Source: a virus (Duplodnaviria > Caudoviricetes). From it: a DNA stretch of 64,000 nucleotides. The notes beneath the pieces were generated by a model that saw only the letters and a program-made list of their open reading frames with translations, was not told the DNA's origin and made no database searches. The stretch lies in the IMG/VR virus record IMGVR_UViG_3300014205_000177, positions 113,805-177,804 of that record; one strand, 5' to 3'. Positions 37,432 to 52,960 of the stretch are shown in pieces (position 1 is the stretch's first letter; every line of letters begins with the position of its first letter). Both the position numbers and the translations under genes were made by a program.

Positions 37432-37689
37432 AAAATCTCCTTGTTATAAAACATATTATAGCATAAATAAATAATATTTCAATTTTTTTAAATAAAATAC
37501 TTGACATTTTTATTGAACATGCTTCACTTTTATTTTTAAGGATAAACTTTAAACATTTTGTTTTATAAATCTATACAACAATGTTATAATCAAATTTTAA
37601 CTACATAGAACGAACGCTATTTAATTTTTTGTTAAGATATGACTCTTTGCCCATTATTGTTGTTTTGGTGGTCTTATTTTTCTTTTATT

Positions 37690-38025
37690 TGATTCTAGTT
37701 AATACTTTACTAGTTTATTTATCTAGTAATTATATTTACCAGTATAAATTACTTACTAGTATAATCTTCTAGTATACTTTCTTTATTGGACTATGCTATT
37801 TAGTGCGTGTATGTGATTATACTAGATAAGTATACCGCACATTACACGTTATTACTAACTAGTTAATTAATTATACTAGTTAATACACAAACTAATATAG
37901 TATTCACGTTAATACGTTACTAGTAATTCTCTGATGTATTAAACTAGTAAAGTATTCACGCACACACGCACGATTATAATAATATATTAATTAATTACTA
38001 GTATTCACGTATGTGCGCACGTAAG
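37690..38025. repeat. AT-rich non-coding region with clustered ACTAGT palindromes
   Basis: ACTAGT at 37709, 37755, 37858, 37875, 37919, 37943, 37997; AGTATTCACG three times. Confidence 0.75.
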
Positions 38026-38088
38026 GATAATTAATAAAAAAACTAAAACATTAATTTTAAAAAAAATTGAAAAAAAATAAAACTTTGT

Positions 38089-38116
38089 TTGTTTTTATTT
38101 GGTTTTATGCTATAAT
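38089..38116 (+). promoter_or_regulatory. Extended -10 promoter of tRNA array 1
   Basis: TTGTTT-N16-TATAAT with TGC; same motif at 39313, 43185, 44551, 46866, 50144. Confidence 0.75.
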
Positions 38117-38159
38117 ATAAAACAGAAACAAAAATAATTTAAAAATGGTGATATTAAAA

Positions 38160-38237
38160 ATGAGAACAATGCAAGATATGACAGTGGCGACAGCCAATAC
38201 CAATCCGGAGAATTCTCCAGTGTGGTACGTCTCTTAG
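38160..38237 (+). CDS. Attenuator leader peptide 1 (MRTMQDMTVATANTNPENSPVWYVS)
   Basis: GGTGA RBS; codons match array 1 tRNAs; 3' end overlaps the antiterminator strand. Confidence 0.8.
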   Translation: MRTMQDMTVATANTNPENSPVWYVS

Positions 38238-38266
38238 TCTTTGTTTTTATTTGTAAATAATGATTT

Positions 38267-38297
38267 AAGAGCGAACCCTAAAAAGTTCGCTTTTTTG
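38267..38297 (+). terminator. Attenuator terminator 1
   Basis: AGCGAAC/GTTCGCT stem plus T-run; alternative pairing with 38224-38237. Confidence 0.8.
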
Positions 38298-38324
38298 TTG
38301 ATTGAAAACTTAATATAATAAAAT

Positions 38325-38417
38325 GCTAGTGTGGCTGAGTGGTCTAAAGCAGCGCACCTGTAATGCGCCGAGTTCATATCAATGGCTCCGTGGGTTCAAA
38401 TCCTACCACTAGCTCCA
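38325..38417 (+). tRNA. tRNA-Thr(UGU), atypical (C33, long variable arm)
   Basis: Acceptor GCTAGTG/CACTAGC, stem GCGCA/TGCGC, loop CCTGTAA, CCA; a Tyr reading needs a broken stem. Confidence 0.7.
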
Positions 38418-38497
38418 GTCTTCCGGCTTCGTAAAAACGAATATAATAACATAGCAATATGTGAAGCGGATATTCCCAGCCGGTTTTATTTTAGAAT

Positions 38498-38575
38498 GGG
38501 GCAATAGCTCAGTTGGCTTAGAGCATCTCGCTTGCACCGAGAAGGTCCAGGGTTCAATTCCCTGTTGTTCCACCA
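38498..38575 (+). tRNA. tRNA-Ala(UGC)
   Basis: Cloverleaf, loop CTTGCAC, G3:U70, CCA. Confidence 0.93.
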
Positions 38576-38583
38576 TTTTACGT

Positions 38584-38661
38584 TGGCTAGTAGCTCAGTT
38601 GGTAGTAAGCGTTCGCCTGTTAAGCGAAAGGTCGCACGTTCGAACCGTGCCTAGCCAGCCA
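38584..38661 (+). tRNA. tRNA-Asn(GUU)
   Basis: Loop CTGTTAA, CCA. Confidence 0.92.
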
Positions 38662-38709
38662 ATTTTATTAACAATGTGTGTTAATATTATTCTAGTTTAA
38701 AATAATTTT

Positions 38710-38795
38710 TGCAGGGATAAGTCTCGGAAGACTGGTAAGGCTCATAACCTTATGCGGAAACGCTGAGTGGGTTCGACTCTCCACCCCTGCTACCA
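38710..38795 (+). tRNA. tRNA-Met(CAU), initiator-like, extra variable hairpin
   Basis: Loop CTCATAA; 1:72 mismatch; GCGGAAACGC V-arm. Confidence 0.75.
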
Positions 38796-38863
38796 TTTCT
38801 CTACCAGAGGTAGGGATATTATAAAGGGTTATCGCTGTCCCCGTCTGACGAAACAGCGAACGT

Positions 38864-38939
38864 GGCTCGTATGGATAATGGCTATCCACAAGTATCATAA
38901 ACTTGTTTAAGGTGGGTTCGATTCCCCCACGAGCTACCA
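38864..38939 (+). tRNA. tRNA with CAU anticodon (Met or Ile2)
   Basis: Stem CAAGT/ACTTG, loop ATCATAA, CCA. Confidence 0.75.
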
Positions 38940-38948
38940 ATTTAAAAC

Positions 38949-39024
38949 GGGGATGTAGCTCAATTAGGAGAGCATCGGTCTGTCGAACCGAAGGTCGTGG
39001 GGGCAGAACCCATCATCCTCGCCA
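38949..39024 (+). tRNA. tRNA-Asp(GUC)
   Basis: Loop CTGTCGA, G73, CCA. Confidence 0.9.
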
Positions 39025-39032
39025 TTTTATAT

Positions 39033-39109
39033 GCTCGGTTAGCTCAATTGGCTAGAGCACTTGGTTTACACCCAAGTTGTTACAGATTCGAGTTCTGTAC
39101 CGAGTACCA
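39033..39109 (+). tRNA. tRNA-Val(UAC)
   Basis: Loop TTTACAC, CCA. Confidence 0.92.
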
Positions 39110-39118
39110 GTTTTATAT

Positions 39119-39208
39119 GGGGAGGTAGCTCAGAGGCAGAGCGTCGGGCTAGGTGGTGAAAACCACCGAATCTGAAGGTCGCTGGTTCGAATCCAGCCTT
39201 CCCCACCA
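39119..39208 (+). ncRNA. tRNA-like RNA with a hairpin inserted in the anticodon loop
   Basis: Intact acceptor, D and T arms and CCA; loop reads CTA-GGTGGT-GAAA-ACCACC-GAA. Confidence 0.8.
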
Positions 39209-39213
39209 GTTTC

Positions 39214-39287
39214 GTTGCGAGATAATATAATTTTTAGTACCCCATTGTGGATGGGAAATGTTGGTGAAAATCCAACTCTCGCAACCA
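39214..39287 (+). tRNA. tRNA-His(GUG), degenerate
   Basis: G-1, loop TTGTGGA; D-loop lacks GG; T-loop atypical. Confidence 0.55.
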
Positions 39288-39312
39288 TTTTTTAAAAAAA
39301 TAGAAAAGTAAT

Positions 39313-39340
39313 TTGTTTTTGAAGTAAATTATGCTATATT
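39313..39340 (+). promoter_or_regulatory. Internal promoter in tRNA array 1
   Basis: TTGTTT-N16-TATATT with TGC. Confidence 0.6.
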
Positions 39341-39431
39341 TTAAAGTATAAGAAAGTTGTTGGATAATTACCAACTGAACTCTGAGGTTATGGGAATATC
39401 AGAGAGAGATTAACAAATAACCCGTACATAT

Positions 39432-39505
39432 CAGAGCGTGAGATAATGGTAGTCGTCCTTCCTTGGAAGAAGGGGGTGGTCGTTCGAATCGACCCGCTCT
39501 GACCA
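39432..39505 (+). tRNA. tRNA-Pro(UGG)
   Basis: C1:G72, loop CTTGGAA, CCA. Confidence 0.9.
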
Positions 39506-39555
39506 TTTTAAATTTAACCATAGTGGTTTAAATAAAAAATAACATAGGAAAAGTT

Positions 39556-39762
39556 ATGGAAGAAGATTTAATTCCTGAAATTTGGGAAAACGGAAAGGGG
39601 AGAACAAAACCCTTTGTAAAAAGTAAGAAAAACAATTATGAAGAACCCAAAAAAAGATTTGGGATAATTGGTAAGAAAAAAGTAAAAGAAAATAGAGAAC
39701 TTCAAGATATAGATGAAGTAGAAGATAAAATAAGTTCTTCTATACTTAGTAAAATTAAATAA
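39556..39762 (+). CDS. Small Lys-rich hypothetical protein
   Basis: 68 aa; AGGA RBS. Confidence 0.6.
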   Translation: MEEDLIPEIWENGKGRTKPFVKSKKNNYEEPKKRFGIIGKKKVKENRELQDIDEVEDKISSSILSKIK

Positions 39763-39767
39763 TATGT

Positions 39768-39843
39768 GTCCGGTTCTTCTAGTTGGACAGGATAAGGGAC
39801 CTTCACTCCCTCGACACGGGTTCGAATCCCGTACCGGATACCA
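39768..39843 (+). tRNA. tRNA-Glu(UUC), C33
   Basis: Stem AGGGA/TCCCT, loop CCTTCAC, CCA. Confidence 0.85.
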
Positions 39844-39846
39844 TAA

Positions 39847-39922
39847 AGCCCTGAAGTGTAACGGCTGCACACTTGTCTTTGACACAAGTAGACTTATGGT
39901 TCAACTCCATGCAGGGCTGCCA
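39847..39922 (+). tRNA. tRNA-Gln(UUG)
   Basis: Loop CTTTGAC, G73, CCA. Confidence 0.88.
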
Positions 39923-39930
39923 GTTTTCGA

Positions 39931-40005
39931 GTTCCCTTAATTCAGAGGAAGAAATTATCGGTCCTAACGATAAAGTCGCTGGTTCAAGTCCAGCAGGGAA
40001 CGCCA
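39931..40005 (+). tRNA. tRNA-Arg(CCU)
   Basis: Stem TATCG/CGATA, loop GTCCTAA, CCA. Confidence 0.82.
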
Positions 40006-40019
40006 GTTTTGTTTTATGT

Positions 40020-40052
40020 GTGCCAGTAGCTGAGAGGATAGAGCAGTGGTTT
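40020..40052 (+). pseudogene. tRNA 5'-half remnant
   Basis: GTGCCAG-TAGCTGAGAGGATAGAGCA-GTGGTTT stops at the anticodon loop, just before the endonuclease gene. Confidence 0.6.
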
Positions 40053-40123
40053 AAATTAAATATTTAAGATTGACGTGTGTTCGATTCAATGTTTCGATGG
40101 TATTATATAAAAAGGAGTTTTAT

Positions 40124-41102
40124 ATGAAAGCCATTGAAATAGATTGGAAATTAGTTCAGGAATACCATAATAATGAGCACTGCTTGAGTGATGTCATGAA
40201 AAATTTTAAGGTTTCAAGAGCATCCATAGATACAGCGGTAAAACATGGATGCTTTGTTAAAAAATATTTTAAACAAGAACACACTGAGGAAACAAAGAAG
40301 GCAATATCTGAAAAAAGGAAAAAATGGTTGGCAGACAATCCAGATAAACATGTATGGAAAAGGAAGGGAAAATTCAAATCTGAACCATGCGAAGTATTAA
40401 AGAAAAAAACTTGAAGAAAATGGAGTTAGTTTTTATCCAGAATTTTCACCAATAGAAAGCCATTCATTCTCTTTAGATATAGCTTTTCCAAAAGATAAGT
40501 TTGGCATAGAAATAAATGGAAACCAGCACTATGAAAGAGACGGTAGACTAAAGGATTATTATCAGAAACGACATGATTTAATCGTTGCAGATGGTTGGGA
40601 ACTATTGGAAATACCTTGTGCTATGGTTTGGAACAAGGAGTTTATTGATGGTTTAATAGAATCACTTAAAACTAAGGTCTGCGGTTTTGAGTATAAAGAA
40701 CAAGTGGAAGAATATAATAAAAAGAAAAGAGAAAAGTATATTTGCCCGACTTGTGACAATAGAAAGAGCAAAAACTCGATGCTTTGTAGAAAGTGTTCTT
40801 TTAAGCCGAAAGTAAAAAAGCAAGTAGTCAGAATTTTTGTAAATAAAAACCATATGTGTCCGAATTGTAAAAACGCTAAAGATGCAAAAGCGGTTTTATG
40901 TAAGGAATGCTTTAGTTTGTCAAAGAGGAAAGTTGAAAGACCAAATAAGGAAGAGTTGGAAAAATTGGTCAAAGAGTTATCGATGACTAAGATAGGCAAG
41001 ATGTTCGGAGTTAGCGACAATGCCGTAAAAAAATGGTGTAAAATTTATGAAATAGAATTAGGAGACAGACGAGGGTACTGGGCAAAGATTTATGCAAGGT
41101 GA
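40124..41102 (+). pseudogene. Frameshifted Vsr/DUF559-like homing endonuclease (NUMOD3-like, nuclease, Zn fingers, HTH)
   Basis: Removing one A from the A7 run at 40403-40409 joins both ORFs through LDIAFP...IEINGNQH...GWELL. Confidence 0.75.
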
Positions 41103-41110
41103 TTTAACAT

Positions 41111-41185
41111 GGTCTCATAGCTTAACGGATAAAGTTCGTGTCTTCTAAACACGCCATTCGGGTTCAATTCCCGATGAGACCTCCA
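41111..41185 (+). tRNA. tRNA-Arg(UCU)
   Basis: Stem CGTGT/ACACG, loop CTTCTAA, CCA. Confidence 0.88.
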
Positions 41186-41206
41186 ATTTTAAAAAAGGAA
41201 TTTTTT

Positions 41207-41464
41207 ATGAAAAGAGCTAGACCTATTTACTCACTAGGGCAGTATTATAGAAACAGGGGCACTCATAAACGAGAAGAAGCAATAAGCGAAGACGAAGAAC
41301 ATAGTCCATTAACTAGAGCCAAGAGAGAATCAAATTTACCTGACTCTTGGGATACAAAAAAGATTTGCAGACCTAAGACATGGAAGAGGAGATGCAAGAA
41401 AGCAAAACAGTGGATGAAACATTTTATGACAGATTTAGAAAAGAAATTTATAAGAGGAGAATAA
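41207..41464 (+). CDS. Basic hypothetical protein
   Basis: ATG 41207 with AAGGA RBS; RAKR..LPDSWD...WK motif. Confidence 0.7.
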   Translation: MKRARPIYSLGQYYRNRGTHKREEAISEDEEHSPLTRAKRESNLPDSWDTKKICRPKTWKRRCKKAKQWMKHFMTDLEKKFIRGE

Positions 41465-41467
41465 ACG

Positions 41468-41572
41468 ATGAGTGGAAAAGGATGTAAGAGAAGACCTCAA
41501 CAGATAAGCGAAGAAAAAATGCAAAGCAATTGGGAAAAAGCATTTAACAAAGGAAATAAAAAGAAAAAATGA
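41468..41572 (+). CDS. Small phage protein (MSGKGCKRRP...NWEKAF)
   Basis: 34 aa; GAGGAG RBS; ATGA overlap with the next gene. Confidence 0.65.
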   Translation: MSGKGCKRRPQQISEEKMQSNWEKAFNKGNKKKK

Positions 41573-42156
41573 GTGAAGTATTGGTTTTAAACAAGCTATG
41601 GCAACCAGTTAAAGTTATTAACGTATGGGATGCAATTTGCAAAGTATATCAAGATAAAGCTTCTTTTTTAGATGCTAATTATGTTATGCATAATTGGGAA
41701 TCTTGGGTTATATCATGGAAAGATGCAGAAATTCATGCAAAAGATATGATACATGGTTCATCTTGTTCTATTAGAAAACCAACTGTAATTGTTTTAAAAA
41801 ACTACAGTGGGTATGTTTTTAAAAAACCAAAGATGAGTAGGCGTAACATTTACTTAAGGGATGCAAACCAGTGCCAATATTGTGGTATAACATACGAAAC
41901 AAAGAAACTAAATATAGACCATATTATACCTAAATCTCATGGGGGAAGAACTCAATGGACTAATGTAGTAGTTTCATGTATAAAATGTAATAGTTTTAAA
42001 GCAGATAGAACTCCTGAACAGGCAGGAATGAAACTTTTAAGAAAGCCAAAAGCTCCTACCTGGAAAGATGTTAACATGGAAGCTTTTCAAAGAAATTATT
42101 CTAATTGGCACGGTCTGTTAAATGACATGTACTGGAATGTTACTTTAGAAAAATAG
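41569..42156 (+). CDS. HNH endonuclease (McrA-like)
   Basis: VLVLN...RD..CQYCG...DHIIPKSHGG...N...C..CN..K. Confidence 0.9.
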   Translation: MSEVLVLNKLWQPVKVINVWDAICKVYQDKASFLDANYVMHNWESWVISWKDAEIHAKDMIHGSSCSIRKPTVIVLKNYSGYVFKKPKMSRRNIYLRDANQCQYCGITYETKKLNIDHIIPKSHGGRTQWTNVVVSCIKCNSFKADRTPEQAGMKLLRKPKAPTWKDVNMEAFQRNYSNWHGLLNDMYWNVTLEK

Positions 42157-42235
42157 AATTATAAGATTGACAAATAAAAAAAAGATGCTATACTTAATAA
42201 GTGTAGCATTTTTTATATATAAATAAGGAGATAAA

Positions 42236-42622
42236 ATGAGTGAAAAAATTGTAATGGGTAAAATGTTTTCTATTGAAAATAAAAACAAAAAAACCGGTGA
42301 AAATGAAAAATACATAGCCGTTTATGTAGAAGACGAAAGCGGAAATGAAGAAACCGAAAGGTGCTTACTATTTACGGAAATAGAGCTTTCCGACATGGAA
42401 AAAGTTGTACTTCCATTTGTTAAGAATACAATGAAAAAAGGAAGAATTTATTCTGTTATTATAGACAAAAAAGAAACAAATCTTTTAAAAGTAGAAACAG
42501 AACGTAATGGAAATATTATTTTTAGGGTTTCTAATTCTCAACTTAAATCGGCAGAAGAAAGGGTTAAAAGAAATCCAGAAGATGTTGAAAAGAAAGATTT
42601 TATAACTGATTTACTTGACTAA
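42236..42622 (+). CDS. Hypothetical protein
   Basis: 128 aa; AAGGAG RBS; promoter upstream. Confidence 0.75.
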   Translation: MSEKIVMGKMFSIENKNKKTGENEKYIAVYVEDESGNEETERCLLFTEIELSDMEKVVLPFVKNTMKKGRIYSVIIDKKETNLLKVETERNGNIIFRVSNSQLKSAEERVKRNPEDVEKKDFITDLLD

Positions 42623-42631
42623 CAAGGAAAT

Positions 42632-42865
42632 ATGATGAAATTAAAAATAAAATGTCCAGAATGTAAAAGGGAACATCTTGTCACTATATCAAATGAACAA
42701 CCTATTATGGAAATTAAAAAGATAAAATGTTTATCTTGTAGTATAATTATAAAATATAGAATAGGAATAAAAAAAGAAAATACCAGTGATAGTTCTTCTA
42801 AACTTTTTGATAGTATGGGAATGTTTGGAGATGTTTTTAAAAATATTATGGGGAGTAAAAGATGA
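42632..42865 (+). CDS. Zn-ribbon protein
   Basis: CPEC...CLSC. Confidence 0.65.
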   Translation: MMKLKIKCPECKREHLVTISNEQPIMEIKKIKCLSCSIIIKYRIGIKKENTSDSSSKLFDSMGMFGDVFKNIMGSKR

Positions 42866-43188
42866 TAGGTACAATAGAAGTGGTAAATAAATATACATAT
42901 GAAGGTGATTATATAGATATAATGAGAGGAACTCCACTTGGTAATCCATATATAGTTTCTGATTCAATGAGCAGAGAACAATCAGTTTTAAATTTTTATA
43001 AATATTTCAGAAAAGAATTTTTTAAAAAAACAGATGTATATAATGCAATAATGGAGATAGTTGAAAAGGTTAAGTCTGGAGAAAATGTAAAAATTAAATG
43101 TTGTTGTAAACCAAAATTATGCCATGGCGATATTATAAAAATTGCAATAGAAAGTATTTTAGAAAAACAAATTAGAAATAATACTTGA
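42862..43188 (+). CDS. DUF4326-like protein
   Basis: IMRGTPLGNPY...CCCKPKLCHGDII. Confidence 0.8.
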   Translation: MIGTIEVVNKYTYEGDYIDIMRGTPLGNPYIVSDSMSREQSVLNFYKYFRKEFFKKTDVYNAIMEIVEKVKSGENVKIKCCCKPKLCHGDIIKIAIESILEKQIRNNT

Positions 43189-43343
43189 TTTTTAAAAATA
43201 TTATGCTATAGTTAATATTATAAAATTTCTTATTATGAGAAATTAAAAAAAAGAGGTAAAAAATGATGTAGAATAATAAATCTCCATAACGTGTTTCTTT
43301 GTTTTAATGATTTTAATAATAATAATAAACAAAGGAGAGTATA
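43185..43343 (+). promoter_or_regulatory. Promoter, amber-interrupted leader and RBS-sequestering hairpin
   Basis: TTGATT-N16-TATAGT; GAGGT RBS; ATG ATG TAG AAT AAT AAA TCT CCA TAA at 43263-43289; 43294-43304 pairs with 43327-43337. Confidence 0.65.
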
Positions 43344-43718
43344 ATGAATACTTTAAGAAACACGAACGAAGAAGTAATAGATTTGAAGAAAGAGGAATAT
43401 AAGAAGAATATTAAAAGGATGAAGGCTAACGTTAAACTGGTGTCAAATAACATAAAAGAAATGAAAGAAGAATTAAAGACTAAGCAAAAAAAAGGTGATT
43501 ATAAAAGTTGGTCTTTAATGAGTGATTTAAATTCTTATAAAAATGATGTCAGAAATACACATATAGCTTATGCTATGGCAAAAGGGAGAGTCTACCAAAA
43601 AATTGAGTCAAAAGTTAGAGATAACAATGAACCAAACTGGTGGGCAATAAAGGCAAATATAGAAAATTTCTTCGGAAAGAAATTTGAAATTGTTGACTTC
43701 AAGGTAAACTTTCTATGA
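43344..43718 (+). CDS. Hypothetical protein upstream of Pth2-like gene
   Basis: 124 aa; RNTHIAYAMAKGRVYQKIE motif. Confidence 0.75.
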   Translation: MNTLRNTNEEVIDLKKEEYKKNIKRMKANVKLVSNNIKEMKEELKTKQKKGDYKSWSLMSDLNSYKNDVRNTHIAYAMAKGRVYQKIESKVRDNNEPNWWAIKANIENFFGKKFEIVDFKVNFL

Positions 43719-44017
43719 AAAAGGTATTTATAATAACCAGGAAAGACCTTGAAAATGGAGCAAGAATAGTTCAGTCTGTTCATTCATTCCATGAGTTGGC
43801 AAGAAAAAATGAAGAAATATTGAATCAGGTATATAATACAATATGTTACAAAATAGAAGACGAACTATCATTAAAAGAAGTTTCTGAGAGGATAGCAAGT
43901 AATCTAAACGAAAAAGAATATGCATGGTTCAGAGAAACAGATTACAATAATCAATTGACCTCTTTTGCAGTCTTTACAAACAAGAAAGAGCTGTTTAAAG
44001 GTTTAAGATTGGCGTAA
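43715..44017 (+). CDS. Peptidyl-tRNA hydrolase 2-like protein
   Basis: IITRKDL..GARIVQSVH...FRETDYNNQLTSFA...LF..LRL pattern. Confidence 0.7.
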   Translation: MKKVFIITRKDLENGARIVQSVHSFHELARKNEEILNQVYNTICYKIEDELSLKEVSERIASNLNEKEYAWFRETDYNNQLTSFAVFTNKKELFKGLRLA

Positions 44018-44021
44018 TAAA

Positions 44022-44051
44022 TAGGGAGGAGTAAATCCTCCCATTATTTTA
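44022..44051 (+). terminator. Intrinsic terminator
   Basis: GGGAGGA/TCCTCCC stem with T-rich tail. Confidence 0.65.
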
Positions 44052-44067
44052 TAAAAAATGGAGAAAA

Positions 44068-44538
44068 ATGAGCAATAAAGAAAATTATTTTTTAGACCTA
44101 GCACTTAGAAGTGCTCATCAAGGTTCCTGTACAAGAAGAAACTACGGAGCAATTATAGTAAACGAGAAAAAGCATATAGTAGCAACTGGTTATACAGGAA
44201 ATGTATCAGGAGAAGAGCACTGTAATAGTCTTGGAATTTGCTGGAGAAAAGAGAATAATATTCCAAGTGGAACCTCCTACGAACGCTGTAAATCAATACA
44301 TGCCGAACAGAATGCGTTAATTCAAGCCGGTAAAGAATCTTATGGTTCTGTAATATATATTGCCGGATATGATGTAGAAACAGGAAGGGAAATAGCTGGT
44401 ATACCTTGCTTTATTTGTGCAAAACTAATTGTTAATGCTGGAATATCTTCTATTATATATAGAGATACATCTTTAGTGTTCAGGAAGGGTCCAGTTGCCC
44501 ATTATCGTGAACTAGAAAGAAAAATATTTGGAAAATAA
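44068..44538 (+). CDS. dCMP deaminase (ComEB-like)
   Basis: HAEQNA and PCFIC zinc motifs. Confidence 0.88.
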   Translation: MSNKENYFLDLALRSAHQGSCTRRNYGAIIVNEKKHIVATGYTGNVSGEEHCNSLGICWRKENNIPSGTSYERCKSIHAEQNALIQAGKESYGSVIYIAGYDVETGREIAGIPCFICAKLIVNAGISSIIYRDTSLVFRKGPVAHYRELERKIFGK

Positions 44539-44550
44539 TAGTTTATGGTG

Positions 44551-44578
44551 TTGTTTTTTTATAAAGTAATGCTATAAT
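44551..44578 (+). promoter_or_regulatory. Promoter of tRNA array 2
   Basis: TTGTTT-N16-TATAAT with TGC. Confidence 0.75.
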
Positions 44579-44718
44579 ATAATCAACAGCCACCGATATA
44601 GAAATATACGGTAATGTATAGCTCATCTGCCAGGTGTAGAGTGAGTTTCCGAGAATGACGATGACAAAATTCAAAGTTGTTCTCCGTTTTTAAAAAAAAA
44701 TAAAAGGAATTATATTAA

Positions 44719-44790
44719 ATGATGAACGTTTTTAAAAAGATTAGTTTTGGTCGTTGGGGTTTTAAACCTCACGTCCGTCTATTCTTGTAA
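44719..44790 (+). CDS. Attenuator leader peptide 2 (MMNVFKKISFGRWGFKPHVRLFL)
   Basis: AAGGA RBS; codons match all 8 array 2 tRNAs. Confidence 0.82.
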   Translation: MMNVFKKISFGRWGFKPHVRLFL

Positions 44791-44816
44791 CGTTTATCGT
44801 TAGTTGTTGGAGAAGT

Positions 44817-44850
44817 AGGCGGACTAGAAATAGTTCGCCTTTTTGTTTTT
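44817..44850 (+). terminator. Attenuator terminator 2
   Basis: AGGCGGACTA-GAAA-TAGTTCGCCT plus TTTTGTTTTT; alternative pairing with 44773-44785. Confidence 0.85.
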
Positions 44851-44852
44851 AT

Positions 44853-44928
44853 GGGTTGATAGCAAACGTGGTCAATGCATACCGTTGAAGCCGGTACTAC
44901 TTCGGTTCAATTCCGAATCAACCCACCA
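44853..44928 (+). tRNA. tRNA-Phe(GAA)
   Basis: Loop TTGAAGC, CCA. Confidence 0.88.
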
Positions 44929-44938
44929 GTTTATGTGA

Positions 44939-45029
44939 GCAAGGTTGTCTTAGCGGCTTGAGAAACCGACTTTTAATCGGTCAGAGGGTAATGCCTCGTA
45001 GGTGGGTTCGACTCCCACACCTTGCACCA
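44939..45029 (+). tRNA. tRNA-Lys(UUU) with long variable arm
   Basis: Stem ACCGA/TCGGT, loop CTTTTAA, V-arm GAGG/CCTC, CCA. Confidence 0.82.
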
Positions 45030-45040
45030 TTTTATAGTAT

Positions 45041-45125
45041 GCGTCGATGTCATAGCGGTTGTGAGGCTGACTCTTAATCAGTGAGAGAAATCTCTAGGTG
45101 GGTTCAACTCCCACTCGGCGCACCA
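45041..45125 (+). tRNA. tRNA-Lys(CUU) with long variable arm
   Basis: Loop CTCTTAA, V-arm GAGA-GAAA-TCTC, CCA. Confidence 0.82.
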
Positions 45126-45137
45126 AGTTTTTTGTGT

Positions 45138-45211
45138 ATGTCTATAGTTCAATAGTAGAACGGGAGTCTCCAAAACTCTTGACGAGGGGGCAGTACCTTC
45201 TAGACATGCCA
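45138..45211 (+). tRNA. tRNA-Trp(CCA)
   Basis: Loop CTCCAAA, G73, CCA. Confidence 0.88.
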
Positions 45212-45220
45212 GTTTTATAT

Positions 45221-45296
45221 GCGCTGTTAGCTCAGTTGGAAGAGCCCAAAAATACGAATTTTGAGGTCGGGGATTCGAATTCTCCACGGCGCACCA
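45221..45296 (+). tRNA. tRNA-Arg(ACG)
   Basis: Stem CAAAA/TTTTG, loop ATACGAA, CCA. Confidence 0.88.
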
Positions 45297-45303
45297 TTTT
45301 CAT

Positions 45304-45379
45304 TGGCGTATCATATAACGGTCAATTATGTGAGACTGATATTCTCATCACCAAGGTTCAACTCCTTGTACGCCAACCA
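45304..45379 (+). tRNA. tRNA-Ile(GAU)
   Basis: Loop CTGATAT, CCA. Confidence 0.87.
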
Positions 45380-45388
45380 GTTATACAT

Positions 45389-45464
45389 ATTCGGTTAGTT
45401 TAGCGGCTAGAACAATACGTTGACATCGTATAAATCATGGGTTCGATTCCCATACCGAATACCA
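45389..45464 (+). tRNA. tRNA-Val(GAC)
   Basis: Loop TTGACAT, CCA. Confidence 0.88.
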
Positions 45465-45472
45465 GTTTTCAT

Positions 45473-45546
45473 GCGAATATAGTACAGTAGCAGTATTTGA
45501 CGTTGCCAACGTTAGGACGAGGGTGCAATTCCCTCTATTCGCACCA
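45473..45546 (+). tRNA. tRNA-Gly(GCC)
   Basis: Loop TTGCCAA, CCA. Confidence 0.85.
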
Positions 45547-45610
45547 TTTTTTGCAACGAAAAATATAATCTTTATGTTGCAAAACCAAGATATTGTGCTA
45601 TACTATCAAT

Positions 45611-45734
45611 GGCGGTTTAGAGAAAGGTTCATCGCCCTCTAACAAGGGAGGGATTGCAGTAGATTCACCGTGGAAGAAAAGTACATCAGTGAAGGAACCA
45701 ATCCAATGTTTTTTCGATAAAACAATCGCCACCA
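45611..45734 (+). ncRNA. Structured RNA with tRNA-like ends
   Basis: GGCGGTT/AATCGCC-A-CCA; T-arm-like GTTTT-TTCGAT-AAAAC; promoter just upstream. Confidence 0.55.
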
Positions 45735-45792
45735 TTTGACATTTATAAAAATCATGCTATTGTACCTCAACAAACTAAAAAGGAGATATGCA

Positions 45793-46191
45793 ATGTGTAT
45801 CAAAATCAAGGCGATGGAAAATGGAGTAATGATTCAAAGCAGAGAAGAATATGAAGATATAATGGATATTCTATTGGATGCAGGTCTTCGGACAGTGAGT
45901 GGAAAATATTTTGGAGAATGTGACTGGTTTAATGAAACCGGAACCGAAACAGTTATAGATTTGAGAAATCTGGAGTCTATTGCATATGGTGAATATCAGT
46001 ATTTTATTGATAATGATATCCCGGTTTGTAATTTCCAGGATTTTCTTACAGAACAGGGTTTAACACCAAACGGATGCATTAGCGGTGAACAACAGATATT
46101 TATGCGTAGGGCAAAGTTGAAATGTCCAAAAATGAAAAAGAAAGAAATCAGAAGACTTGCAAAGGCAATCGTGAGGGAGATGAACAAATGA
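45793..46191 (+). CDS. Hypothetical protein
   Basis: AGGAG RBS; promoter upstream. Confidence 0.7.
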   Translation: MCIKIKAMENGVMIQSREEYEDIMDILLDAGLRTVSGKYFGECDWFNETGTETVIDLRNLESIAYGEYQYFIDNDIPVCNFQDFLTEQGLTPNGCISGEQQIFMRRAKLKCPKMKKKEIRRLAKAIVREMNK

Positions 46192-46769
46192 AAGCAAGAA
46201 CTAAAAAAGAAGTAGTGCAAATAGGATTATTAGTTGATGAGAGTGGTTCTATGTATAGCCTCTCTGGTGATACAATCGGTACGGTTAATGGTTTCATTAA
46301 AGACCAGAAAAAAGTAAAAGGAGAAGCAGAAATAACAATAGCTTCATTTAATGATAACTATAAACTCATTAAAGATAGAGAAGATATCAAAAATATTGAA
46401 GAAATTACCAGCGAAGATTATTCTCCATCTGGAATGACGGCATTATATGATTCTATTATGAAAATAATTTCTTCCATAGAAGAGACAAAAGCTAAAAAAG
46501 CGATAATCGCTATTATTACAGATGGAATGGAAAACTCAAGTATTGAATATAAAGATTCAAGTGTAATTAAAGAAAAAATACAGCAGAAACAAAAAGACGG
46601 GTGGCAGATATTATTTCTAGCTGCAAATATTGACGAAAAGGCAGTGGGTGCAAGTTTCGGAATAAATGCAATGTACACTCAGGCGTTTACTCCTACAGCA
46701 GATGGCGTAATAGGTGCTATGTCATATACATCGAGATGCGTTAGTGATTACAGGGGCAATAATGATTAA
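46188..46769 (+). CDS. vWA-domain protein
   Basis: MIDAS DESGSM, GMTALYD, ITDGMENSS. Confidence 0.88.
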   Translation: MKARTKKEVVQIGLLVDESGSMYSLSGDTIGTVNGFIKDQKKVKGEAEITIASFNDNYKLIKDREDIKNIEEITSEDYSPSGMTALYDSIMKIISSIEETKAKKAIIAIITDGMENSSIEYKDSSVIKEKIQQKQKDGWQILFLAANIDEKAVGASFGINAMYTQAFTPTADGVIGAMSYTSRCVSDYRGNND

Positions 46770-46865
46770 AATAGGGATAACACAGAGAGAGGTGATGCGG
46801 CTTTAGATTTAAAATGGTTGTGTTTATTGGAAATAAATAAAAATCAAAAAAAGTTTTAAAACTAT

Positions 46866-46893
46866 TTGTTTTTATCGAAAGTAATGCTATAAT
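46866..46893 (+). promoter_or_regulatory. Promoter of tRNA array 3
   Basis: TTGTTT-N16-TATAAT with TGC. Confidence 0.75.
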
Positions 46894-46932
46894 ATAGATG
46901 TGTAAGATAAATAAATTAAAAAGGAAATCATC

Positions 46933-47007
46933 ATGAACAAGTTGTTATCAAGTCATTCACTATCGCTCTCATCCTATATAGGATGCGAGATAGGTCTGCT
47001 TTGGTAA
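46933..47007 (+). CDS. Attenuator leader peptide 3 (MNKLLSSHSLSLSSYIGCEIGLLW)
   Basis: AAGGA RBS; Ser/Leu-rich codons match array 3 tRNAs. Confidence 0.82.
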   Translation: MNKLLSSHSLSLSSYIGCEIGLLW

Positions 47008-47034
47008 TACTTTTTAGATATTCCCAGTTTTTAA

Positions 47035-47071
47035 AAAGAGCAGACCGTAAAAAGTCTGCTCTTTGTTTTTG
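47035..47071 (+). terminator. Attenuator terminator 3
   Basis: AAAGAGCAGAC/GTCTGCTCTTT plus GTTTTT; alternative pairing with 46993-47002. Confidence 0.85.
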
Positions 47072-47080
47072 TTGTGATAT

Positions 47081-47155
47081 GCTCCAGTAACATAATGGCT
47101 AGTGTAGGTGACTTCCACTCACCCAATGAGAGTTCGATTCTCTCCTGGAGTACCA
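47081..47155 (+). tRNA. tRNA-Gly(UCC)
   Basis: Loop CTTCCAC, CCA. Confidence 0.88.
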
Positions 47156-47163
47156 GTTTATAT

Positions 47164-47261
47164 GGAAGAATAAGCCGAAAGATTCTGGGTAGCGGCAACG
47201 GTCTTGAAAACCGAAGGCTCTAAAACAGGGCGTGTGGGTTCGAATCCTACTTCTTCCGCCA
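47164..47261 (+). tRNA. tRNA-Ser(UGA)
   Basis: Loop CTTGAAA, long V-arm, G73. Confidence 0.88.
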
Positions 47262-47303
47262 GTTTAGACTAGAAATAGTTGATGTTGTTTGAAAATTATA
47301 TAT

Positions 47304-47376
47304 GTCCCGTGAGCCAGATGGAGAGGCGATTGTCTGCAAAACAATGGAAACAGTTCGATTCTGTAACGGGACTCCA
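47304..47376 (+). tRNA. tRNA-Cys(GCA)
   Basis: Loop CTGCAAA, U73, CCA. Confidence 0.87.
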
Positions 47377-47384
47377 GTTTATAA

Positions 47385-47476
47385 GGAGATGTAATCCTAA
47401 AGGCAAGGAAAGAGTTTGCTAAACTCTTAGTAACCGAGAAATCGGCGTGGGTTTTCAAGACACCCCATCTCCGCCA
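47385..47476 (+). tRNA. tRNA-Ser(GCU)
   Basis: Loop TTGCTAA, long V-arm, G73. Confidence 0.82.
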
Positions 47477-47550
47477 GTTTTAAGTAGACAACTCACTATG
47501 TCATAAAAGTACCAAGAGGGCGACATAGTAATCAGAATAGAATATTATTT

Positions 47551-47626
47551 CCGCAGGTAGCTCAGGGGTCAGAGCTCTATTCTTATAAAGTAGCTGTCAG
47601 TGGTTCAATTCCACTCCTGCGGACCA
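47551..47626 (+). tRNA. tRNA-Ile(UAU)
   Basis: Stem CTATT/AGTAG, loop CTTATAA, CCA. Confidence 0.85.
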
Positions 47627-47637
47627 TTTTAAAATAA

Positions 47638-47725
47638 GGGTGTTGTCCCCCACGGAAGTCTGTAAAACTTTTGACATATGTAAGTGGGGTGGCGTCAAGT
47701 GGTTCAATTCCACCAATACCCACCA
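47638..47725 (+). tRNA. tRNA-Tyr(GUA), non-canonical fold
   Basis: Loop CTGTAAA; 8-bp acceptor, 4-bp T stem; no normal D-arm. Confidence 0.65.
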
Positions 47726-47752
47726 TTTTTAGGCGACTTAGCGGTCGTCTTT

Positions 47753-47883
47753 GAGCGCACAACGCCTAGTAATCTAAGTGGCATCCAAAGTTGCTCTTGG
47801 TGCTTAGAGGGCTTGTATTTCGAGTGTGGTTTGCAACAGCCCACATGAGAAGCATATAGGTATTGCCGGAAGATTGTGTGCTC
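47753..47883 (+). ncRNA. Unidentified structured RNA
   Basis: Closing stem GAGCGCACAA/TTGTGTGCTC enclosing two hairpins. Confidence 0.5.
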
Positions 47884-47893
47884 TAAATTTTAT

Positions 47894-47984
47894 GGAAGTT
47901 TGCCGGAGATGGATTATCGGCTCTCATTGGAAATGAGATGGTCACTTAAGTGGCACGAAGATTCGAATTCTTCAACTTCCGCCA
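47894..47984 (+). tRNA. tRNA-Ser(GGA)
   Basis: Loop TTGGAAA, long V-arm, G73. Confidence 0.88.
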
Positions 47985-47992
47985 GTTTTAAT

Positions 47993-48125
47993 GGGGGTGA
48001 AATTTATTCGATTATGGTTTCGCAATGTGGTAGCTTGGAAGCAATGGTAGCAAATGCACTTGAAAACTCTACCATCCACACTTAGGAAACCGTAAGACCT
48101 GGGTTAAATCCCAGCACTTCCACCA
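47993..48125 (+). ncRNA. Minimal tmRNA-like RNA, 133 nt
   Basis: GGGGGTG/CACTTCC-A-CCA with G3:U70; ATTCGA D-loop analogue; helix TTATGGTTTC/GAAACCGTAA; GAC then T-arm. Confidence 0.7.
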
Positions 48126-48130
48126 GTTTT

Positions 48131-48305
48131 GGTAAACGTGAAGACGAAGATTGAGGAATGGTTTGTTTTGGACGAACGCCCCGTTATCCATGGGGAGAAG
48201 ACATAAAACTCAGCACCAAGTCATTTCGTGGTGGCGTTGCCAGAGAAGTTATGGGTACGATTGTGGCTCGTATTTAGACCGGAGCATTACCGGTACGTCA
48301 CCCCA
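48131..48305 (+). ncRNA. Structured RNA with tRNA-like 3' end
   Basis: GGTAAACGT/ACGTCACC-CCA; ACCGG-N7-CCGGT; several internal hairpins. Confidence 0.45.
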
Positions 48306-48315
48306 ATTTTTATGT

Positions 48316-48392
48316 GCGCCTATAGGAGAATTGGCATATCCGTCTGGTTTAGGCCCAGAATTTTCTCGGTTCGAGTCCGAGTAGGCGTACCA
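48316..48392 (+). tRNA. tRNA-Leu(UAG), short variable loop
   Basis: Loop TTTAGGC, CCA. Confidence 0.85.
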
Positions 48393-48447
48393 CATTTTTT
48401 AGACTAGAAATAGTCGACGTTGTTTGAAAAAGTATATATGAAAATAT

Positions 48448-48724
48448 CCCCATGTGGCGGAATGGCAGACGCAACGGACTTATTAATTTGAGCCTTATAT
48501 TGGAAACTTTATAAGTGGACATGGCTAATTCGGTGAATCCTTTAATATGGTAACGCCGAGCTATCGAAAGAGAGTGTAGAGACTTTACACCATGTGCCTA
48601 AGTCTATGAAGATATGGCAAAGACAAAGTCCAGACCACGCAAGAAGAGAGTAGTGAAAACTATAGTGGTACGAAAATTCGTCGCCCGTTAGGGCGTGAGG
48701 GTTCGACTCCCTCCTTGGGGACCA
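48448..48724 (+). tRNA. tRNA-Leu(UAA) split by a group I intron
   Basis: Exons 48448-48481 and 48673-48724 rebuild loop CT-TAA-AA. Confidence 0.9.
48482..48672 (+). mobile_element. Group I intron (trnL-UAA type), 191 nt
   Basis: Inserted U^AA; P AATTCGGTGAA, Q AACGCCGAGC, R GTAGAGACT, S AAGACAAAGTCC; terminal G. Confidence 0.9.
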
Positions 48725-48802
48725 AATATTTATGTTATAGTTATTTTTTTGTGTTATTTGCATCTGCCATGTTATATTATAATAAAACAGCGGGAGTAAA
48801 TA

Positions 48803-49717
48803 ATGAAATATACAAAAGAGATGCTAGAAGAGGCAATTAAAAATAATGTTAGTTTTGCGGGAGTTCTAAAAAGTTTTGGATTACATCCGTCCGGTGGTAG
48901 TCATAGACTAATAAAATCAAAAGCATTAAGTTTTGGAATAAGTACGGAACATTTTCTTGGAAAGGCATCAAATTGCGGAAGTAGGTACAAAGGTGGGTTA
49001 GAAAAAATAAGTTTTTCAGATGTGTTAGTGTACGATAGAAGAAATGGAATGAGGGAGAGTGCCTCTAAACTAAAAAGGTCTATGCTGGAAAGCGGGATAG
49101 AATATAAGTGCGAAAAGTGTAACAATGATGGTGTCTGGATGGATGGTTTTGTGTCTTTGGAGGTTCATCACAAAAATGGAGATACTTTTGACAACACAAA
49201 AGAAAACCTTGTATTTATATGTCCCAATTGTCACAGTCAAACTGACAACTTTCGTGGAAGAAATAAGGTTGAAAAAGATATTCAACAAATAAGAACAGAA
49301 GAGGAGGTTGTTGCAGCACTTCTAAAGAGTAAAAATATAAGACAATCACTTATAGAACTAAATTTGGCTCCATACGGAGGTAATTACGATAGGATTAAAA
49401 GAGTAATGATAAAAAAGGATATTGAGTTCAATAAAAAAGAAAAGAAAACTGCAACATGTCCGTCGTGCGGAAATAAAAAAGATTACTCCAGCGCAGAATG
49501 TAGAAAGTGCGCAAGTATAAAGAGAGGTTTGGCAGAAAGAAAAGTTGAACGTCCATCAAAAGAAGGCTTGGAGAAAATGATTGCTGAACTTCCAATGACA
49601 AAGATTGGAAAAATGTTTGGAGTAAGTGATAATACTATTAGAAAATGGTGTAAGAATTACGGAATAGAATTAGGTAATAGATTAGGATACTGGACGAAGA
49701 TAAAATATAGCAAATAA
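48803..49717 (+). CDS. HNH homing endonuclease with C-terminal Zn finger and HTH
   Basis: CEKC...LEVHHKNGD..DNTKENL...CPNCHSQT. Confidence 0.9.
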   Translation: MKYTKEMLEEAIKNNVSFAGVLKSFGLHPSGGSHRLIKSKALSFGISTEHFLGKASNCGSRYKGGLEKISFSDVLVYDRRNGMRESASKLKRSMLESGIEYKCEKCNNDGVWMDGFVSLEVHHKNGDTFDNTKENLVFICPNCHSQTDNFRGRNKVEKDIQQIRTEEEVVAALLKSKNIRQSLIELNLAPYGGNYDRIKRVMIKKDIEFNKKEKKTATCPSCGNKKDYSSAECRKCASIKRGLAERKVERPSKEGLEKMIAELPMTKIGKMFGVSDNTIRKWCKNYGIELGNRLGYWTKIKYSK

Positions 49718-49721
49718 ATAT

Positions 49722-49798
49722 GGTCTCGTAACCGAATTGGCATAGGTATCGTGCCCAAACCACGAGTTTTATGGGTTCGACCCCCATCGAGACCACCA
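49722..49798 (+). tRNA. tRNA-Leu(CAA), C33, short variable loop
   Basis: Stem TCGTG/CACGA, loop CCCAAAC, CCA. Confidence 0.78.
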
Positions 49799-49979
49799 TT
49801 TAGATTTGAAATTACTTGTTTATATGCTATATTAATAAAAAATATTGAAGAAGTAAAAGAAATATTATATAAAATTTTAAATCAAAGATGGTAACTTATC
49901 CGTAATCTGTTGTAGATTCTTGAATGAGAGGAGATAGGGACAAGGATAAGTTATTATTTTTAATGATAAAGGAGAGAAT

Positions 49980-50147
49980 ATGAACTATATAGATGTAATT
50001 ATTGATAAACACGAAGAAAAAATTAAAGCAGTAAAAGAATCTTCTTCATGTAAAGGTGATTTTGCTAGAAAACTTTTAGAAAAAGGAATTGTACCTTATT
50101 TTTCTGATGGAATAAAAATTTATGAAAAACTTTATAAATCTTCTTGA
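49980..50147 (+). CDS. Small hypothetical protein, 55 aa
   Basis: AAGGAG RBS; MNYIDVIIDKH... Confidence 0.55.
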   Translation: MNYIDVIIDKHEEKIKAVKESSSCKGDFARKLLEKGIVPYFSDGIKIYEKLYKSS

Positions 50148-50209
50148 TTTTAATAAAAAGTGTGCTATAATATAGATGTAATGAAAATTACGAGTTGTTT
50201 AAATTTTTT

Positions 50210-50283
50210 GAGGAAGCGGTTAGATGAGTTACTTCAATGATTTTAAATCTTTGCCAAAAAACGCTTGTCTTATTATTCTCCTC
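50210..50283 (+). ncRNA. Y RNA-like RNA, short
   Basis: GAGGA/TCCTC closing stem; ATGAGTTACTTCAA...GCTTGT shared with 50498-50616; upstream of Ro60. Confidence 0.7.
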
Positions 50284-50293
50284 ATACATTTTT

Positions 50294-50488
50294 ATCTGTT
50301 ATATGGATTCCTCGCCACTGTTACAGTAGTGGAGGTTGAACGTTCATACGTTCCTAGGAGGTTGTGGTTAAATACTGCTCAGGTGTGGATTAAATAGGTC
50401 TGTAAATATTAAACATTAATGCCTATTTTAACATGGTTGTATATTGCGCAATATATGACATAAGCAGTCAGAATTTTAACTAACAGAT
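50294..50488 (+). ncRNA. Unidentified multi-stem RNA between the Y RNAs
   Basis: ATCTGTTA/TAACAGAT closing stem with several internal hairpins. Confidence 0.5.
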
Positions 50489-50497
50489 TACATTTTT

Positions 50498-50616
50498 GTT
50501 GGGTAGTGTAGATATGAGTTACTTCAAAGCTCAATGGTAGAGCATTTCTCTTGAAAAGAAAATGTTACTGGTTCAAATCCAGTTGATAATAAAGCTTGTA
50601 TCGCTTTTCTCCCAAC
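50498..50616 (+). ncRNA. YrlA-type Y RNA with tRNA-like domain
   Basis: GTTGGG/CCCAAC stem enclosing D-arm AGCTCAATGGTAGAGC, anticodon-like arm and T-arm CTGGTTCAAATCCAG; no acceptor CCA. Confidence 0.82.
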
Positions 50617-50740
50617 TCTTATTTTACGTCAACCATGTGTTGAATGTAGTGAACCTGTCATGGTACAGGTTTTGAGTTGGGTGGGGTTCTCGCATACCTC
50701 ACCCATTTTTTTTACAATTTATGCGAAAGGAAAAAGGAAA

Positions 50741-52294: not shown

Positions 52295-52305
52295 TAATTA
52301 AAATG

Positions 52306-52959: not shown

Positions 52960-52960
52960 A

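Follow-up and report, generated by a model that had tools for sequence, protein, structure and literature searches.

The window analyzed here, a stretch of 64,000 nt that corresponds to positions 113805-177804 of a 177.8-kb viral contig with 30% GC, contains three tRNA arrays, and each of them is preceded by a promoter, a Shine-Dalgarno site, an open reading frame (ORF) of 23-25 codons and an intrinsic terminator, in this order. The three short ORFs, designated here leaders 1 to 3, are written to a large extent in codons read by the tRNAs of their own array, and the end of each leader can pair with the 5′ arm of the terminator that follows it. From these features we infer that the leaders are translated and that termination is regulated, and we consider it probable that the three units are ribosome-mediated (leader-peptide) transcription attenuators controlling tRNA genes by the mechanism known from the trp, his and ilv operons. 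The presence of tRNA genes in phages is commonly attributed to the matching of codon usage and, lately, to the replacement of host tRNAs cut by defense nucleases; to our knowledge, their regulation has hardly been studied.

The three units share the same architecture, always on the plus strand. The promoters (38089-38116, 44551-44578 and 46866-46893) consist of the hexamer TTGTTT (38089-38094, 44551-44556 and 46866-46871), a 16-nt spacer and the extended −10 sequence TGCTATAAT (38111-38116, 44573-44578 and 46888-46893), of which there are six copies on the whole contig, five of them within the tRNA region. The ATG leader ORFs begin 37-134 nt past the predicted transcription starts and have a Shine-Dalgarno-like site 7-13 nt upstream. 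Leader 1 (38160-38237; 25 codons; site GGTGAT 7 nt upstream) is rich in Thr, Ala, Asn, Met, Pro, Glu, Gln, Asp, Val and Arg; leader 2 (44719-44790; 23 codons) is rich in Phe, Lys, Ile, Gly, Arg, Trp and Val; and leader 3 (46933-47007; 24 codons) is rich in Ser and Leu and also contains His, Tyr, Ile (ATA), Gly (GGA) and Cys. The leaders are followed after 26-29 nt by the terminators: terminator 1 (38267-38294, annotated through 38299) has a 10-bp stem, an 8-nt loop and a T tract, and terminators 2 (44817-44840, annotated through 44851) and 3 (47035-47064, annotated through 47075) are GC-rich stem-loops followed by a T tract. Terminator-like sites are frequent in the region, with 20 of them vs. 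7.5 ± 3 in shuffled sequences. The first tRNA genes start at 38325, 44853 and 47081, leaving gaps of 12-30 nt after the terminators. The gaps in units 2 and 3 (12 and 16 nt) are too small to accommodate a promoter and, therefore, arrays 2 and 3 must be transcribed via readthrough. An earlier inspection of the letters of the window (the sequence-only reading) had noted this layout at 38089, 44551 and 46866 and had claimed that the leaders share no obvious sequence likeness; we found all the parts in the three places, and the leaders indeed do not resemble one another.

The 5′ untranslated stretch of unit 2 (44585-44718) is unusually long (~134 nt) and contains hairpins, one of them followed by a run of Ts (~44651-44697); the first hairpin shows compensatory changes in the metagenomic relative L064 (see below) and the remainder is not conserved. 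This stretch may represent either an independent small RNA or an additional point of control. Among the sequencing runs listed as containing the analyzed stretch, none was of RNA. A wastewater run labelled RNA-Seq contains two short contigs identical to 46838-46987 and 47006-47070; this run was judged uninformative on transcripts, because it is probably DNA and one of the contigs begins upstream of the promoter.

ARAGORN with default parameters identified 25 tRNA genes, all on the plus strand, between 38325 and 49798, and searches with Rfam and relaxed ARAGORN added Asp-GUC (38949), Trp-CCA (45138), a His-like tRNA (39216), Ser-UGA (47177), Ser-GCU (47385) and a Tyr-GUA-like tRNA near 47637. 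Array 1 (38325-41185; ARAGORN/Rfam), with small ORFs interspersed, comprises Thr-UGU, Ala-UGC, Asn-GUU, two tRNAs of the Met-CAU type, Asp-GUC, Val-UAC, a tRNA body with an insert in the anticodon loop, His-GUG-like, Pro-UGG, Glu-UUC, Gln-UUG, Arg-CCU and Arg-UCU. Array 2 (44853-45546) comprises Phe-GAA, Lys-UUU, Lys-CUU, Trp-CCA (anticodon read by eye from the sequence), Arg-ACG, Ile-GAU, Val-GAC and Gly-GCC. Array 3 (47081-49798; ARAGORN/Rfam) comprises Gly-UCC, Ser-UGA, Cys-GCA, Ser-GCU, Ile-UAU, Tyr-GUA-like, Ser-GGA, an unassigned tRNA-like element, His-GUG, Leu-UAG, Leu-UAA with a group I-like intron, an HNH gene and Leu-CAA; the halves of Leu-UAA and the anticodon loop of the Tyr tRNA were read by eye. 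Combined, the three blocks cover all twenty amino acids.

We compared each leader with the three arrays using standard wobble rules and a strict list of tRNAs (default ARAGORN plus Rfam hits above the gathering score), called independently of the leaders. Leaders 1, 2 and 3 matched their own array in 17/24, 15/22 and 9/23 codons, respectively, and the foreign arrays in 2/24 and 4/24 (leader 1), 2/22 and 4/22 (leader 2) and 2-3/23 codons (leader 3). With an extended tRNA list, the own match of leader 3 was 14/23, with 2-5 foreign-array matches across the leaders over both lists, and it reached 16/23 with the full list, which adds Tyr-GUA and Leu-UAA. The diagonal sum of 41/69 from the strict list compares with 18.6 for peptides drawn from the codon usage of the phage and with 20.0 ± 4.1 when the tRNAs were re-dealt among the three arrays, and a value of 41 was reached in none of 100,000-200,000 simulations (P < 1e-5); the own-array codon match proposed in the sequence-only reading thus passed the permutation test. 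When all 481 ORFs of the contig that begin with ATG and span 20-30 codons were ranked by their match to an array, leaders 1 and 2 came first for their own array, and leader 3 occupied rank 39 (strict list) because most of the tRNAs in array 3 are unconventional. The match also extended to the level of isoacceptors, as had been claimed: with the peptides fixed and their synonymous codons resampled, we observed 48 matches (full list) vs. an expectation of 40.7 ± 2.5 (P = 0.003), and of the 15 leader codons for the four amino acids with isoacceptors in different arrays (Gly, Ile, Val and Arg), 13 corresponded to the own array, vs. 7.1 expected (P = 0.001). Each leader samples 10-15 different codons, one to three times each, and between them they sample almost all amino acids. 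This match is useful for annotation, because leader 3 samples the codons of the odd tRNAs in array 3 (the intron-containing Leu-UAA and the unusual Ser and Tyr tRNAs), which argues that these tRNAs are functional.

Pairing between the end of the leader and the 5′ arm of the terminator was seen in all three units, in agreement with the sequence-only reading. Four to eight sense codons at the end of the leader form the 5′ strand of the putative antiterminators, and in unit 1 this strand also includes the stop codon. The stop codons are at 38235, 44788 and 47005, and the 5′ strands in units 2 and 3 end a few nt before them. In antiterminator 1 (38224-38277), positions 38224-38239, comprising the last codons and the stop, pair with 38262-38277, which overlap the 5′ arm of the terminator, and enclose a small hairpin. 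In antiterminator 2 (44769-44826), positions 44773-44783 (codons 19-22) pair with ~44813-44823, also overlapping the 5′ arm, and in antiterminator 3 (46993-47046), positions 46993-47001 (codons 21-23) pair with 47038-47046, within the 5′ arm. The predicted energies of antiterminator and terminator are, respectively, −16.2 vs. −11.2 kcal/mol in unit 1, −22.5 to −24.2 vs. −14.7 kcal/mol in unit 2 and −17.6 vs. −15.6 kcal/mol in unit 3, where the antiterminator values come from folding the RNA present before the 3′ arm of the terminator is made and the terminators were folded in isolation. The complementarity exceeded that of dinucleotide shuffles, with duplexes of −12.5 in unit 1 (P = 0.016), −16.6 in unit 2 (P = 0.0025) and −17.4 in unit 3 (reached in 0/2000 shuffles; P < 0.0005), and it was also above that of random windows from the same phage. 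A small internal palindrome is present in each leader as well.

From the geometry of the footprint, a ribosome at the stop codon or in the last five to nine codons would cover the 5′ strand of the antiterminator, as predicted in the sequence-only reading, and stalls at about codons 2-17 (unit 1), 2-14 (unit 2) and 2-16 (unit 3) would leave it free. The proposal that a stall on any missing tRNA induces the array would consequently hold for the early codons and not for the last 6-9, where the stalled ribosome itself would mask the strand. When we folded the RNA ahead of the ribosome, the predicted probability of the terminator was at least 0.93 (0.93-0.97) with the ribosome in the last 5-10 codons or at the stop, and it fell to 0.1-0.3 with A-site codons 10, 11 and 13-17 in unit 1 and to 0.04-0.37 with codons 7-14 in unit 2. 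The positions of the codon matches follow the same division: 36/44 codons match in the productive segment of the leaders, delimited by placing the leading edge of the ribosome, as an assumption, 14 nt downstream of the first A-site nucleotide, vs. 12/25 in the tail over the antiterminator strand (Fisher P = 0.004).

The contig is assigned to a 4.0-Mb assembly with 33% GC, and the best-matching DNA run is a landfill metagenome, probably its source. The contig carries more than 30 tRNA genes and represents the genome of a large phage that was binned together with a bacterial metagenome-assembled genome; any phage-host link from this binning is putative. A megablast comparison with GenBank phages retrieved no close relative, only short tRNA matches, and the sigma factor encoded near the arrays had no match by tblastn. 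A VWA homolog in Pseudomonas phage phiPsa374 was followed as a lead and discarded, as there are no tRNA genes nearby. Four metagenomic relatives were found through neighboring proteins (the sigma factor, a deoxycytidylate (dCMP) deaminase and a VWA protein), and the flanking genes in one relative include those for a terminase, a capsid protein and a sigma factor. The closest VWA relative shows 59% identity.

These relatives retain the design. Relative L076, part of a 144.7-kb contig with a sigma factor 57% identical, contains all three units in the same order, with diagonal matches of 17/26, 10/22 and 13/24 (sum 40 vs. 22 ± 4; off-diagonal values 1-8; P = 2e-5 by re-dealing). Array 1 of L076 carries additional Gln-CUG and Pro-CGG genes, and its leader 1, which has a 6-nt in-frame insertion and no upstream in-frame ATG, shows CAG and CCG where the leader in the window shows CCG and GTG. 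In L064/L065 (dCMP deaminase 65% identical), the promoter, leader and terminator of unit 2 are kept; the unit 2 promoter is also kept in L076, and the leader 2 orthologs from these relatives differ by one 3-nt in-frame indel. In L059, the leader that comes after a VWA protein 51% identical shares hardly any residues with leader 3; nonetheless, 16/23 of its codons match its own array (Gly, Ser, His, Tyr and Leu tRNAs) vs. 1/23 for the upstream array, and it pairs with its own, quite different, terminator arm. Neither Cys nor Ile-UAU tRNAs are present in the L059 array, and its leader contains no Cys or Ile codons, both of which occur in the phage from the window. Across relatives, indels within the leaders are of 3 or 6 nt, and the spacers after the stop show one 7-nt and one 3-nt deletion. 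Covariation of codons and anticodons, to be expected according to the sequence-only reading, is apparent in the loss of Cys and Ile in L059 and the gain of Gln and Pro in L076, and appears imperfect at the L076 codons AAG, GTT and TGT (see below). In L076 (10001-11749), the dCMP deaminase gene located upstream of unit 2 carries an intein.

A comparable organization is found in other phages. One case is an IMG/VR phage of 429 kb, in which His, Glu, Val and Trp codons abound in an ORF that is followed by a terminator and by tRNAs for the same four amino acids; another ORF of this phage, rich in Asn, Asp and Arg, precedes a terminator and an Asn tRNA. In the cultured Caulobacter phage phiCbK (positions 46500-53500 of the record), gene gp083, annotated as a hypothetical protein, matches 23/44 codons of the Pro/Lys/Leu/Ala/Ser array that follows it vs. 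1 and 1 for the other arrays, and a second, unannotated ORF upstream of record position 51465 matches 11/31 codons of a Phe/Val/Ile/Gln array vs. 3 and 3; both ORFs precede tRNA blocks and record-annotated terminators (49745-49769 and 51465-51502 of the record). Conversely, phage T5, used as a negative control, shows no codon-matched ORF before any tRNA group, and the supposition that its tRNA region might contain such leaders proved wrong. The candidates L009-L011 were weak (P about 0.01, TTG start) and are not counted as examples. A search of IMG/VR for the exact promoter pattern retrieved seven unrelated contigs; only one of them (L021) has tRNAs downstream, and the promoter there precedes an antitoxin-like 57-aa ORF instead of a leader.

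As attenuators, the three units would work as follows. A strong sigma-70-type promoter would start the transcript and the short leader would be translated at once; with fast decoding, the ribosome at the last codons or the stop would cover the segment able to pair with the 5′ arm of the terminator, the terminator hairpin would form, and RNA polymerase would halt 12-30 nt before the first tRNA gene. If the ribosome stalled early on a codon whose tRNA is scarce or uncharged, the segment would be left free to pair with the 5′ arm as soon as this is transcribed, and the antiterminator would allow readthrough into the array. Each array would then be governed by its own negative-feedback, on-demand supply circuit and, since the leaders are written in the codons of their own array, an array would be induced when its own decoding falls short and kept off when host and phage tRNAs suffice. 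If this is true, the tRNA supply of the phage is self-adjusting, a textbook mechanism is extended from amino-acid enzymes to the decoding machinery, and the leaders give a read-out of which tRNAs the phage "expects" to lose. The same design in phiCbK, a cultured phage, makes the idea testable in a standard laboratory system.

Several observations weigh against attenuation, or limit how it could operate. A TATAAT sequence without a good −35 lies at 38314-38319, between terminator 1 and its first tRNA, and might give basal transcription of array 1. The terminator probability of unit 3 never fell below 0.6 in the scan of ribosome positions. With the ribosome footprint masked, the check put forward with the sequence-only reading, the terminator is favored at most ribosome positions in the equilibrium fold of the whole transcript. 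We set aside this whole-transcript folding as a poor model for that reason, and based the conclusions on folds of the RNA ahead of the ribosome and of the RNA present before the 3′ arm of the terminator. Since the terminator wins at equilibrium, the switch must be kinetic, as in trp, and it would work only with kinetic folding and coupling of transcription to translation, which is plausible. The leaders also lack the runs of one codon seen in hisL and pheL, each codon appearing only one to three times, and the response to slow decoding of just one codon may be weak unless its tRNA is severely depleted. Unmatched codons occur within the productive segment, for Asn and Lys at the beginning of leader 3 as well as for Met, Asn and Ser in leader 2. 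Finally, the L076 leaders keep AAG, GTT and TGT, for which ARAGORN finds no Lys-CUU, Val-GAC or Cys tRNAs in the matching arrays; these absences could be failures of tRNA detection. The antiterminator complementarity in L076 is also weaker (unit 2, P = 0.07; unit 3, P = 0.14).

It is conceivable that the leaders are ordinary small phage genes, with arrays produced by constitutive leak or from unrecognized promoters and a codon match due to efficient translation or to chance. Small ORFs are common among phage tRNA genes, as in T5, there without a codon match, and the phiCbK record labels gp083 just as a hypothetical protein. However, chance is excluded by the permutation, synonymous-codon and small-ORF ranking tests, and efficient translation would not favor the codons of the own array while avoiding those of the others. 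This explanation also leaves unaccounted for the antiterminator complementarity in all units and in the relatives, the clustering of matches upstream of the antiterminator strand, and the retention of the design in L059 after complete turnover of the peptide; we consequently deem it very improbable. We give still less credence to a reverse logic, by which efficient translation of the leader would promote readthrough, for instance by melting upstream structure, in a positive feedback by the phage tRNAs. Folds of the untranslated transcripts do favor the terminator (0.94-0.97), partly via upstream RNA paired to the antiterminator strand, and therefore some translation would be needed for any readthrough. 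Nevertheless, the 5′ strand of the antiterminator (last sense codons, plus the stop in unit 1) would lie under any ribosome completing the leader, and the predicted terminator probability peaks (0.93-0.97) when the ribosome has arrived at the final codons or at the stop.

Within the attenuation reading, more than one trigger can be envisaged. One option, which we advance as a tentative and rather doubtful extension, is that of a multiplexed counter-defense sensor: removal of a tRNA by a host anticodon nuclease, or by another defense that depletes tRNAs, would stall the ribosome in one leader and turn on only the array carrying the replacement, in a design general among large phages including phiCbK. 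Because each codon is so sparsely represented in the leaders, a strong response would probably need severe tRNA loss which, by reasoning, fits a nuclease attack better than mild starvation. We infer this trigger, and the data do not separate it from supply-and-demand feedback or amino-acid starvation. Alternatively, the same attenuators could sense the general state of translation or the amino-acid supply, through a global slowdown of ribosomes or through tRNA left uncharged in starvation, and set the timing or dosage of the phage tRNAs, with no role in counter-defense. It is established for trp, his and ilv that leader-peptide attenuators respond to charged tRNA whatever the cause, the sampling of almost all amino acids by the leaders taken together agrees with such a role, and no anticodon-nuclease gene or target preference was identified in this analysis. 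We think this unlikely, since more tRNA does not relieve amino-acid starvation, so an array-specific match would be of little benefit, and the isoacceptor-level specificity fits the sensing of single tRNA species better than that of amino acids.

The closest known systems are the leaders of ilvGMEDA (Ile/Leu/Val) and thr (Thr/Ile), followed by trpL, hisL, pheL and leuL. As in these enterobacterial leaders, the phage units have a promoter-proximal ORF with regulatory codons, a terminator before the regulated genes, a mutually exclusive antiterminator whose 5′ strand is masked by the finishing ribosome, and, as in ilv and thr, several amino acids sensed per leader. Conversely, they would regulate tRNA genes instead of biosynthetic enzymes, have no runs of single codons, match the downstream anticodons to the level of isoacceptors, divide the code among three parallel units, and show no sequence or Rfam similarity to the enterobacterial leaders. 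An Rfam scan of 37500-51500 with E values up to 1 likewise revealed no T-box and no amino-acid leader family (Trp, His, Leu, Thr or similar). Ribosome-mediated attenuation of a gene for the translation machinery by the supply of charged tRNA is known from pheST of Escherichia coli; unlike the phage units, that attenuator is cellular, controls a synthetase and responds to just one amino acid. T-box riboswitches of Gram-positive bacteria also sense tRNA status through a terminator/antiterminator switch upstream of translation-related genes, but their recognition of uncharged tRNA is direct, relies on a specifier codon and the T-box sequence, and involves neither a ribosome nor a leader ORF. A search of the literature in full text retrieved no paper in which tRNA genes, of phages or of cells, are controlled by a leader peptide, and the phiCbK genome paper mentions neither attenuation nor leaders, which agrees with the remark in the sequence-only reading that such control of phage tRNA arrays seems undescribed. 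The new elements would thus be the tRNA genes as target, the panel-of-codons design and the division of the genetic code among parallel units, the mechanism itself being textbook. The tRNAs of T5, according to the titles and abstracts of two papers, counter the tRNA-cleaving host systems PARIS and retron effectors, and these titles and abstracts contain no mention of control of phage tRNA genes by leader translation (PMC11464382, PMC11555353). By replacing depleted host tRNAs, such counter-defense tRNAs provide the setting where an on-demand circuit would pay off; T5 differs from the phage studied here in having no codon-matched leaders.

Various tRNAs in the arrays are unusual. The first tRNA of array 1 (38325-38417), called Thr-UGU by ARAGORN, measures 93 nt, has a long extra arm and carries a C at position 33 in place of the usual U. 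The tRNA body at 39119-39208 (54.6 bits) carries a 20-nt insertion at the anticodon loop that makes the anticodon unreadable. In array 2, two tRNAs with Lys anticodons (UUU and CUU; 44939-45125), of 91 and 85 nt, have paired long variable arms and Rfam scores of 49 and 47.5 bits; long variable arms are normally limited to Leu, Ser and Tyr tRNAs. Array 3 contains a stretch of ~133 nt between Ser-GGA and His-GUG (47993-48125) that ends in a paired acceptor-like stem plus CCA and receives no assignment from tRNA tools. The tRNA-Leu(UAA) gene (48440-48722) appears to be split in the anticodon loop by an insert of ~200 nt, a layout that resembles the tRNA-Leu intron of cyanobacteria and plastids; positions 48472-48648 match the Rfam group I intron model with 38.5 bits, below the threshold, and the source DNA run also contains contigs lacking 48473-48691 or 48482-48692.

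Two other copies of the promoter lie near different genes. A fourth copy, with TTGATT, a 16-nt spacer and TGCTATAAT, starts a unit of a different type (50144-50705), with a 57-codon ORF (50224-50397) followed by a tRNA-like element that is truncated (50524-50586; 53.9 bits over model positions 5-66), possibly a Y-RNA-like or tRNA-mimic RNA. The strong terminator of this unit (50678-50705) overlaps the start of a 544-aa ORF without a Pfam match. A fifth promoter with TGCTATAAT, on the minus strand (37455-37482), points away from array 1 toward small ORFs and the gene for the phage sigma-70-family factor (36298-36894, minus strand; Sigma70_r2 plus a helix-turn-helix domain), which is kept beside the tRNA region in the relatives. 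Lastly, genes for HNH-type homing endonucleases are found among the tRNA genes at 40605-41102, 41569-42156 and 48803-49717, and two of these HNH-region ORFs have a C-terminal helix-turn-helix segment in common.

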